A stretch of DNA of 6,815 bases. Source: a virus. Taxonomy: Duplodnaviria > Heunggongvirae > Uroviricota > Caudoviricetes. The stretch spans positions 1 to 6,815 of the IMG/VR virus record IMGVR_UViG_2737471819_000003; one strand, written 5' to 3'. The position numbers were made by a program. Positions 1 to 3,000 of the stretch are shown piece after piece (position 1 is the stretch's first letter; each line of letters begins with the position of its first letter).

Positions 1-3000
1 CCACGCGCACTAACCCTTTTCTTACCTGACCGACAAAAGTTAAAGAATCTGAGCATGATGCAATTGGTGTTACATCATGTACCAAATCAAGCCACCCATT
101 AGGTAACCCAAGCGCGGCTTCAAATTTTCTTGCTAGTTTATCCCCTATGTTTCGAGTGCTTTTTTCACCGGAGACTTGCGTGAGTTGAGAAGGGCTAACC
201 CCAAGCTTATCGGCAAAGCTTGCATTAGTGTTACCCGCGATTTTTTTATGCTCATCTAGCAAAAACGCCAGATTCGATTTGCGAATATCTTTGTTTTCCA
301 TCTCACAATTTTCCCTCTATTTAGCAAATGGATAAATACGCAATATGATAAATTTACATTGCGGTTGATTTATCAAAATGGTAAAGTTATTCTGTGTGAT
401 AAACGGAGGCACTAATGAGTAATGAACTACTACGCTGGCGAAAAGAGGCTTCTAGTGAGGAATGGAAGCGACTCGCCGCATTAGCGAAAACTTCAGTTGG
501 CTATCTTGACCAGATTGCATATGGATTTCGAAGAGCTTCCCCTGATAAAGCGAATGCAATCGAAGAAGCTACTCGTAATTTCACGGGTTATAAACCTGTG
601 AAAAAGGAAAACCTAGTGTTCGTATCGCGTAGAGCATCGGCTGCATAAGTAACACCGCTATTTTCACAATGGACATTCGTCCTACGTCGCTGACAAAGCG
701 AGTCCCAATATATCTGACCAACTAAGGCTACATGCGTTTCCACGCATACCTTTCAACTAACTATTCACTATTGGAAATCTTAAGAAATGGAACAAACAAG
801 TTACAGCAAACTATCCCAGCGTGACGTTGATCGCGCAGAAACAGATTTACTCATCAACCTGTCAACGCTTACCCAGCGCGGTCTGGCAAAGATGATTGGC
901 TGTCATGAATCGAAGATAAGCAGAACGGACTGGAGGTTTATTGCTTCGGTCCTGTGTGCTTTCGGAATGGCATCAGACATCAGTCCGATTAGCAGGGCTT
1001 TTAAGTATGCGCTTGATGGACTCACCAATAAAAAACGCCCGGCGGCAACCGAGCGTTCTGATCAAATACAAATGGAATTTTAACAACATCCAACGAGGTA
1101 ATTATATGCGAAAAACGCAGGAAAATAAACGCGTTAATCACCGAAAAGATGTGCTACGTGACCAGTTTTATCAGGGGGTTAATCCAGCAATAGCTGTGCC
1201 ACTGAGAGAAATACTTAACAGGTACAAAACTTCGGAGAAGTCAAAATGAGCATGAATCTTATGGCTAAGGCCATGAATATAAAGGTTGGCAACCCACTGA
1301 GAAAACTGGTTCTGATTAAACTTGCCGATAACGCCAATGATAATGGCGAATGCTGGCCTTCATATCAACATGTCGCTGACCAGTGTGAGGTGAGCAGATC
1401 GACAGTAAAAAGTCACATTAGGGCACTGGAAGATATGGGGCTTTTGAAAAGGGAATTCAGAAGAAAAGGAGAGCTTAACCAGTCAAACGTTTTTTATCTG
1501 ACGTTGGATAATGCACAACAAATCCAACCAGAATTAGGTGGGGCAGGAGCTGACCGGGGTGGGGCAGGAGCTGACCCCAGAACCTATCACTCTTTTGAAC
1601 CAGTCAATGAACCTAAAAACATTAAGTTCGAACGTGTCCGAACGAAGTGCGAAAAATCATCTGACCGTCACGAAGAAACCGACAAGGCATTCGAGGAAAT
1701 ATTCTGGTGTGCAGGCATGCGGAAAGCCGGGAAGAAAAACGCAGCTTCGGCATTCAGAACACAGTTCAGGGAATGGCGTAAAACTACCGGGGGTACGGCA
1801 AGCGAGTTTGCCACGATGCTGGCAGAAGACATCGCATGCAGGAATGGTAAGCAGTTCGGATTCGACAGGTTGTTACCATCGAGCTACCTGAACGGTCAGC
1901 GCTGGAACGACGAGAAGCCAGAAACCATTCAACCACAAGCCAGACCATCATCCGCAATCACCGTATCGAAAACTGGCTACGTGTTTTTCGACAGGTGAAC
2001 CATGAAATCAAAAATCAAATCGCTACTGGTCGCTGGTTATAACCACGGCTGGTTAAGTATTTCGTTTGTCGATTTCTGGTTTAAAAATCTCAATCTGAGG
2101 GAATCATGACGCCAAGTGAACTTAGCGACCTGCTTTGGGCGCAGGTTGACAGGGTGGCTCCGCACCTGTTGCCAAACGGCAAGAAAGAGGGGCATGAGTG
2201 GGTTGCCGGTAACGTTAACGGTGACAAGGGAAACAGCCTTAAGGTCAACCTTAGCGGCAAGAAAAAATGGGCTGATTTCGCTGAGGGAGACGGCGGTGAC
2301 ATGCTTGATTTGTGGATGGCATGTCGTGGAATTAACCTGCATCAGGCTATGCAGGAAGCGAAAGCATTTCTCGGTATCAAGGATGACGATCACCATTTCG
2401 ATGCCAGACGTGAGAAGAAATTCTCCAGACCTGATCGCAAGAAAATCGCCCGCTACGTTACCAGAACAGAATCCCATCTTGAGTACCTGCAATCGCGTGG
2501 CATATCGCCAGAAGTCGTAAAGCGCTACGAGGTTGTCAGCGGCAAGGTGTGGAATGGAGAACGAGAACTGGATGCTCTGGTGATTCCGTACAAACGCGAT
2601 GGTGAGTTGTTGCAGGTCAAGCGAATCAGCACTGAGCGCCCGGACGGGAAGAAAGTCATTATGGCAGAAGGTGATTGCGAACCTTGTCTGTTCGGATGGC
2701 AGGCTCTGGACGCTGGCGTGAGGGCGGTTGTACTTTGCGAAGGCGAAATTGATTGTATGAGCTATGCGCAATACGGCATCTCGGCGTTATCCGTGCCGTT
2801 TGGTGGCGGGAAAGGCGCTAAGCAGCAGTGGATTGAGTTTGAGTATCACAATCTCGACAGGTTTGAGGAAATATTCATCTCGATGGACGTTGATGATGTT
2901 GGTCGTGAAGCCGCAAGGGAAATCGCAAGCCGACTCGGTGAACATCGTTGCCGTCTTGTTACACTGCCGTACAAAGACATCAACGAATGCCTGATGAACG

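Follow-up and report, generated by a model that had tools for sequence, protein, structure and literature searches.

The analysed window, the whole 6,815-nt stretch that forms positions 1 to 6,815 of IMG/VR record IMGVR_UViG_2737471819_000003, opens inside a leftward cI gene whose start codon lies at position 301 on the minus strand and whose first 100 codons read, in translation, MENKDIRKSNLAFLLDEHKK... (Table 1). An intergenic region of 113 bp (302-414; 32% GC) separates cI from the rightward cro, which carries that name in the H-19B, BP-4795 and ST2-8624 annotations; the leftward gene is likewise annotated as cI. In homoimmune phages the full CI protein has 234 aa; its DNA-binding domain is N-terminal, and its C-terminal domain is of the Peptidase_S24 (LexA-like) type, matched in Pfam by a full-length CI homologue with E=3.8e-16. 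The intergenic region thus has the flanks of a right operator (OR): a leftward S24 repressor gene on one side and a rightward cro on the other, with cII further downstream. Cro gave no Pfam match and, in a PDB sequence search, no solved relative (best E = 0.3). For the CI N-terminal domain, the same type of search yielded nothing significant (best hit ‘Phage repressor protein CI’, E = 0.07), and the pseudoazurin matches that it gave for the C-terminal part of CI look spurious. An Rfam scan of the window yielded no match.

Table 1 Features of the cI/cro region. Coordinates refer to the window unless the ST2-8624 locus is named; promoter elements are predictions.
Feature	Coordinates	Strand	Remarks
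cI, 5' part (first 100 codons)	1..301	-	Translation; gene runs off the left end of the window
PRM candidate (weak)	308..336	-	-35 TTTATC (336-331), 17 bp, -10 GAAAAT (313-308)
OR3	319-337	.	ATTTAGCA-AAT-GGATAAAT; 1 mismatch to the pattern, best consensus match
OR3, ‘repressor binding site’ of GQ499358	320-336
OR2, register favoured here	335-353	.	AATACGCA-ATA-TGATAAAT; 3 mismatches to the pattern
oR2 of KU238070	341-357
OR2, ‘repressor binding site’ of GQ499358	344-360
PR -35 hexamer	359..364	+	Most likely TTGCGG; conserved TTG, 17-bp spacer to TAAAGT
Second promoter-like pair	365-393	+	TTGATT-17-TATTCT; made by T365 and A389, 6 bp downstream of the conserved PR
OR1	368-386	.	ATTTATCA-AAA-TGGTAAAG; 2 mismatches to the pattern
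OR1, ‘repressor binding site’ of GQ499358	369-385
PR extended -10	379..387	+	Most likely TG (379-380), G, TAAAGT (382-387)
OR0	386-404	.	GTTATTCT-GTG-TGATAAAC; right half alone (397-404) fits the consensus
OR0, ‘repressor binding site’ of GQ499358	387-403
Shine-Dalgarno GGAGG	405-409	+	Ahead of cro
cro	415-648	+	ORF of 77 aa
cII	787-1083		ORF on the rightward side, downstream of cro; Phage_CII family member (Pfam)
OL1	1861-1879 of the 9-kb ST2-8624 locus (L001)		Pattern match with ≤3 mismatches
OL2	1886-1904 of the ST2-8624 locus		Pattern match with ≤3 mismatches; CAATAGCAAAATGATAAAT = CAATAGCA-AAA-TGATAAAT
OL3	1918-1936 of the ST2-8624 locus		Weaker site

Positions 1-1046 of the window are 98-99% identical to Stx phages, and related DNA occurs in about 2000 E. 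coli genomes. The cI part (1-301) is identical to that of H-19B, ST2-8624 and BP-4795, and a comparison of positions 1-700 with H-19B (AF034975), ST2-8624 and BP-4795 revealed two intergenic differences and one dinucleotide in H-19B cro. Given this near-identity, the window carries the H-19B immunity region, which is also present in BP-4795, ST2-8624, AU5Stx1 and mEp506. The 5' part of cI, the intergenic region and cro are essentially the same as in H-19B; the window differs by two linked intergenic substitutions (T365 and A389), which are confined to positions 365 and 389 and leave OR3, OR2 and OR1 unchanged. Downstream of cII the two diverge in content, with the window encoding an HTH_36 protein and an intein-containing primase-helicase and not O/P/ren.

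The passage on H-19B in a published review gives its OR four operator sites, credited to Shi & Friedman 2001 (Mol Microbiol 41:585-599). A GenBank record of the ST2-8624 immunity region (GQ499358), described as ‘similar to bacteriophage H19-B’, annotates OR3, OR2, OR1 and OR0 as well as OL1-3 upstream of N, so that, per this annotation, the window and H-19B share the same four OR sites (OR0-OR3) and H-19B has three OL sites. Other papers citing the H-19B work contained no operator coordinates, and we found no literature mention of accession GQ499358 or of ‘OR0’.

An earlier note on this DNA had proposed four half-sites, in both orientations, as candidate operator elements between cI and cro. 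Direct reading recovers all four copies of the motif: TGGATAAAT at 329-337, which contains GGATAAAT (330-337; one mismatch to TGATAAAT), an exact TGATAAAT at 346-353, its exact inverted copy ATTTATCA at 368-375, and TGATAAAC at 397-404. The first three lie where the note had put them, while the fourth, given there as 396-403, is shifted by one base. With up to one mismatch allowed, the intergenic region holds five matches to TGATAAAT against a mean of 0.46 in dinucleotide-preserving shuffles of the AT-rich region 302-414 alone, and none of 5000 such shuffles reached five, which bears out the proposed clustering. The 8-mer shows no enrichment in the window taken as a whole (12 matches, 8.3 expected), and five of these 12 matches fall within 319-404.

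Two further half-sites, absent from that first description, are ATTTAGCA at 319-326 and TGGTAAAG at 379-386. Paired with the copies at 330-337 and 368-375, respectively, they form complete 19-bp dyads. The repeating unit is a 19-bp pseudo-palindrome with the consensus ATTTA(T/G)CA-N3-TG(A/C)TAAAT. Searched with the pattern ATTTAKCANNNTGMTAAAT at up to three mismatches, the window matches solely at 319-337, 335-353 and 368-386, that is, three times against 0.18 expected (0 of 200 shuffles). Accordingly, the region contains several pseudo-palindromes of ~17-19 bp that follow one consensus with 1-3 mismatches (OR3, OR2 and OR1), as an OR does. Each of the four half-site copies falls in a repressor site annotated by GQ499358 for the H-19B-type OR, in agreement with their reading as operator half-sites. 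The units are of unequal quality. OR2, in the 335-353 register, combines a strong right half (346-353) with a left half that is weak, and its first 3 bp also belong to OR3. OR0 scores about +1.3 bits as a full dyad in the window and -0.9 bits in H-19B, covers the predicted start of PR and the first part of its transcript, and is absent from the Pantoea and Klebsiella relatives described below. It looks like a lineage-specific addition of the E. coli H-19B lineage and probably depends on the neighbouring OR1.

The window itself stops short of OL. In homoimmune ST2-8624, BP-4795 and H-19B, dyads are found upstream of N, ~2.5 kb from OR (Table 1 for ST2-8624). One genome per species was scanned, which gave three Pantoea prophages, and a phage collection was searched, which gave Klebsiella phage KO-TP1. 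Identity of their CI N-terminal domains to that of the window is 56-63% for Pantoea and 51% for KO-TP1 (about 50-63% overall); the C-terminal domain differs. Homologous cro genes follow homologous operators in both genera. The intergenic regions of the relatives align gap-free with the window from the cI start codon through the PR -10, and OR3, OR2 and OR1 are kept at identical positions, with a half-site that is mostly ATTTAGCA. In these relatives, as in the E. coli phages, the OL region ahead of N carries this consensus again, in three sites spaced 25 and then 33 bp. Searching for the motif beside homologous repressors, as the earlier note had suggested, thus returned the same dyads in the same geometry.

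Conservation is concentrated in the dyads. Of 45 specified operator positions, 35 are the same in all four lineages, compared with 9 of the 32 remaining positions of the intergenic region (Fisher p = 2e-5), and C7, G13 and T15 are invariant in 18/18 sites from three lineages. A weight matrix built from Klebsiella and Pantoea sites only gave its three highest scores among 6797 window positions to OR3, OR1 and OR2 (18.2, 16.6 and 14.1 bits), followed by a next-best score of 7.3 bits. Applied to the ST2-8624 locus, this foreign matrix returned OR3, OL2, OR1, OL1 and OR2 as its top five.

These comparisons bear on two other explanations of the repeats. The first regards them as a side effect of AT-rich promoter sequence, such as UP elements and -10-like hexamers, or as sites of a host protein, which would fit the low GC content of the region (32%) and the overlap of the motif with the -10-like hexamers TAAAGT and TATGAT. 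We give it hardly any credence, as none of the local dinucleotide shuffles attained the number of copies seen, the dyads reappear at OL, 2.5 kb from OR, they persist between genera although the bases between them vary, and the record of a homoimmune phage annotates them as repressor binding sites. The second holds that the repressor or Cro binds other units, namely an everted TGATAAAT-N14-ATTTATCA dyad (346-375) and/or the near-palindrome TTGAT-TT-ATCAA (365-376). Both had been pointed out earlier and both exist in the window, and the N14 geometry is kept in Pantoea and Klebsiella, since the whole OR aligns without gaps. However, the N14 dyad is not a unit but combines half-sites of two operators, the right one of OR2 and the left one of OR1, and the equivalent halves at OL are 6 bp apart, not 14. 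The short palindrome is created by T365, a position occupied by A in H-19B and most of 124 E. coli copies, and is absent in the relatives. The 19-bp inverted register, in contrast, recurs at OR3, OR2, OR1, OL1, OL2 and OL3 in all four lineages, which makes the N14 and short-palindrome units very improbable as the functional ones.

The rightward promoter PR is most likely TTGCGG-17-TAAAGT (359-387), with a predicted start near 394. The TTG at 359-361 shows no variation among E. coli, the three Pantoea loci and Klebsiella, in contrast to its flanks, and the relatives read TTGCTT or TTGCGT, 17 bp, TAAACT. On the N strand, TTGCCA-17-TAAAGT (PL) is the sole promoter-like match in the OL region. With its -10 located within OL1 and its -35 reaching OL2, it mirrors the arrangement at OR. 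The conserved TTG and -10 together with the mirrored PL led us to place PR at 359-387. OR1 covers the spacer of this predicted promoter and the first four bases of its -10, consistent with the earlier proposal that the half-sites overlap rightward promoter elements. Two other candidates for PR were rejected. TTAGCA-17-TATGAT (321-349), the only promoter-like match that the prediction tool reported in the region, has a -10 that is unconserved in the relatives and lacks a counterpart at PL. TTGATT-17-TATTCT (365-393) was discarded as the ancestral PR, with H-19B having ATGATT and TGTTCT in its place, the latter without the essential A2. For the leftward maintenance promoter PRM we can offer a weak candidate (7/12 consensus match), whose GA.AAT is kept in the three Pantoea loci but not in Klebsiella; TATCAT at 350-345 is an equally weak alternative for the -10. 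The candidate would start transcription close to position 301, the A of the cI start codon ATG, and might give a leaderless mRNA as in lambda.

Motif, symmetry, local enrichment, conservation, promoter geometry and identity with H-19B, all observed here, point to one reading: with a probability of roughly 90%, positions 319-404 hold the CI/Cro operators of an H-19B-type OR in a lambdoid prophage. Repressor binding and the number of four sites are taken from the review and from GenBank annotation. The right operator is the already known H-19B immunity region, real but ordinary. Because the sites match only the consensus of this repressor, they would define the immunity specificity of the phage, as the earlier note had supposed.

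In the proposed mechanism, CI dimers would recognise the 19-bp pseudo-palindromes in OR. Cro, made from PR, would be expected by the lambda paradigm to recognise the same sites as CI. CI bound at OR1, over the PR spacer and the first -10 bases, would shut off cro and the lytic genes, and CI at OR0, over the predicted start, could add a second block of PR. OR2 and OR3 lie over the presumed leftward promoter region for cI maintenance, where their occupancy would govern PRM; they presumably set cI autoregulation and the shut-off of cI by Cro. The same sites at OL would control PL and N, and RecA-stimulated self-cleavage of the CI S24 domain would lift repression. The order of filling in this scheme, like the PRM position and the PR start, is a prediction. 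Operators of this kind determine the phages against which a lysogen is immune and the tightness of prophage silencing, and in Stx1 and Stx2 phages with an H-19B-type immunity region this affects induction and toxin release. For the window, the main value is a correct annotation with four operators and PR and PL placed. The conserved register of OR2, which implies a spacing unlike that of lambda, adds a modest lead.

The placement of OR2 differs between sources. The two GenBank records disagree by 3 bp, and we tentatively favour a third register, in which the middle operator may occupy 335-353, with a 3-bp overlap with OR3, and not the lambda-like GenBank position 344-360. Scored with a matrix made without any OR2 or OL2 site, 335-353 reaches +13.5 bits in E. 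coli compared with -15.7 for the GQ499358 register. Across lineages the values are +10.6 to +13.8 bits for 335-353, and the annotated register drops to between -16 and -29 bits in the relatives. OR2 at 335-353 closely resembles OL2; positions 338-353 are largely conserved, whereas 354-358 are unconserved in the relatives; and a TGATAAA arm forms the right end of every annotated site except OR2. In the 335-353 register the operator centres are 16 bp (OR3-OR2), 33 bp (OR2-OR1) and 18 bp (OR1-OR0) apart, a geometry that is kept without a single indel in the E. coli, Pantoea and Klebsiella prophages.

OR2 at the GenBank position (344-360, centre 352) would instead produce a lambda-like array, 24-25 bp from centre to centre, with OR2 touching the PR -35 and the TGATAAAT at 346-353 read in another register. 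This arrangement would parallel OL2, which touches the PL -35. It has the annotated position in GQ499358 on its side, along with the placement shifted by 3 bp in KU238070, and the 25-bp spacing of OL1 and OL2 and the overlap of OL2 with the PL -35 would suggest an analogous OR site centred at 352. With negative scores in every lineage where the 335-353 register is positive, a right part (354-358) that is not conserved, an annotated OR2 that alone lacks the right-end TGATAAA, and two records that are inconsistent with each other, we regard this position as unlikely. A lambda-like middle operator centred at 352 was accordingly set aside as a candidate for its strongly negative matrix score.

If OR2 does occupy 335-353, its centre may lie on roughly the opposite helix face from that of OR3 (16 bp) and three helical turns from that of OR1 (33 bp). 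The scheme known from lambda, in which adjacent dimers at OR1 and OR2 cooperate and OR3 acts independently, could then not apply. OR2 and OR3 would be mutually exclusive or would be occupied on opposite faces, and a clinically relevant family of Stx phages would have a differently wired CI/Cro switch. Shi & Friedman 2001 may already place OR2 at 335-353, in which case this register would be nothing new. Among lambda-like operators, a 3-bp overlap such as that of OR2 and OR3 is unusual.

The overall plan is that of lambda OR, with divergent cI and cro, cII downstream, pseudo-palindromic operators whose consensus is common to OL, O1 over the spacer of the lytic promoter and the first part of its -10, and a repressor with a LexA-like cleavable C-terminal domain. 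The window differs from lambda in its operator sequence (ATTTATCA-N3-TGATAAAT), in having four OR sites where lambda has three, and in its centre spacings (OR 16, 33 and 18 bp, OL 25 and 32-33 bp; lambda about 20-24 bp). The CI N-terminal domain, moreover, lacks detectable sequence similarity to solved repressors.

The operators of the phage P22 c2 repressor are about 18 bp long and read ATTTAAG...CTTAAAT. Their outer ATTTA/TAAAT arms look like those found here, whereas the inner half-site bases and the length differ (18 versus 19 bp). The P22 c2 N-terminal domain was not returned by the PDB sequence search with the H-19B-type CI, and common descent of the recognition system therefore lacks support. 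Phage 933W (OR/OL; Tyler, Mills & Friedman 2004) shares with the window a Stx-phage immunity region with a non-lambda operator number; the review gives it three operators at OR and two at OL. Its CI is related in part of the C-terminal region (73% identity over residues 81-110). It differs in operator sequence and in the DNA-binding domain at the N terminus of CI, which indicates separate immunity.

The two linked substitutions that distinguish the window from H-19B, ST2-8624 and BP-4795 (A365 and G389 in all three) form a minority allele. Of 124 E. coli genomes with this OR, 6 matched 330-414 exactly, as did 3 of 35 phage records. T365 and A389 also occur in AU5Stx1, Stx1_121427, mEp506 and E. 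coli CP53. Together they make the second promoter-like pair listed in Table 1, and position 389 lies within the weak half of OR0. By altering bases around PR and OR0, the allele could change promoter strength or repression, sometimes in combination with a further substitution: mEp506 and E. coli CP53 carry an additional G396A in OR0.

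Two GenBank records place the second operator between cI and cro, OR2, in conflicting registers, corresponding to window 344-360 in GQ499358 (the ST2-8624 immunity region; locus L008, 2640-2656) and to window 341-357 in KU238070 (the ST2-8624 locus; L001, 4341-4357). Neither placement coincides with the conserved 335-353 dyad, the sole OR2 register that agrees with the family consensus and with OL2, one of the operators upstream of N.

Natural variants seen in the H-19B-type OR lie at positions 365, 386, 389 and 396, all around the inferred rightward promoter PR and the operator OR0, and among the OR copies no natural variation was seen in OR3, in OR2 or in the core of OR1. 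Relative to H-19B, the window carries two linked substitutions, A365T and G389A. Together they generate a second promoter-like pair: 6 bp downstream of the conserved PR, the window reads TTGATT-17-TATTCT. Window 330-414 is matched exactly by only 6 of the 124 E. coli genomes and 3 of the 35 phage records. In the relatives mEp506 and E. coli CP53 the two substitutions are accompanied by G396A, which improves the weak OR0. Within cro, positions 556-557 read GC in the window, ST2-8624 and BP-4795 and CG in the H-19B record AF034975 (L003, 5532-5533), altering one Cro codon; the CG may be a sequencing error from 1998 or a genuine variant.

Prophages of Pantoea and Klebsiella have the N-terminal DNA-binding domain of CI, the cro gene and the arrangement of operators in common with H-19B, whereas the C-terminal part of their CI is unrelated and alignment fails beyond about residue 75. 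The half-site in these prophages is in most cases ATTTAGCA, compared with ATTTATCA in the H-19B type, and the recognition-helix region reads PSQLTQVSGE rather than ASQFSQLLGE; these differences may represent a small shift in specificity.

Likeness to H-19B, BP-4795 and ST2-8624 stops shortly past cII, and a mosaic junction marks the end of the immunity module (window about 1046-2100). Those three phages carry O/P/ren replication genes, in place of which the window prophage encodes an HTH_36 protein (1246-1998) followed by a primase-helicase. The 3′ end of cII contains a strong intrinsic-terminator-like hairpin on the minus strand (1032-1059; 12 pairs, then a T run), whose sequence resembles the terminator of the lambda antisense oop RNA; a scan against Rfam returned no match anywhere in the window.

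Coordinates of downstream genes, their domains and related prophage loci
Feature	Location	Strand
Toprim / AAA_25 primase-helicase ORF, 968 aa	window 2106-5012	+
Hom_end-associated Hint	residues ~379-424 of primase-helicase ORF	
LAGLIDADG_3 homing-endonuclease domain	residues ~579-634 of primase-helicase ORF	
Homing-endonuclease-type ORF, NUMOD4 + HNH_3 (+ I-HmuI NUMOD-like)	window 6166-6768	+
Pantoea/Klebsiella prophage relatives	L004 3001-3684; L006; L007 2426-3178	

An intein-like insert, carrying the Hint and LAGLIDADG_3 domains, interrupts the primase-helicase ORF. A second mobile-element-like gene within the window, the homing-endonuclease-type ORF, is directly preceded by NinB (5676-6173), the end of which it overlaps by 8 bp.
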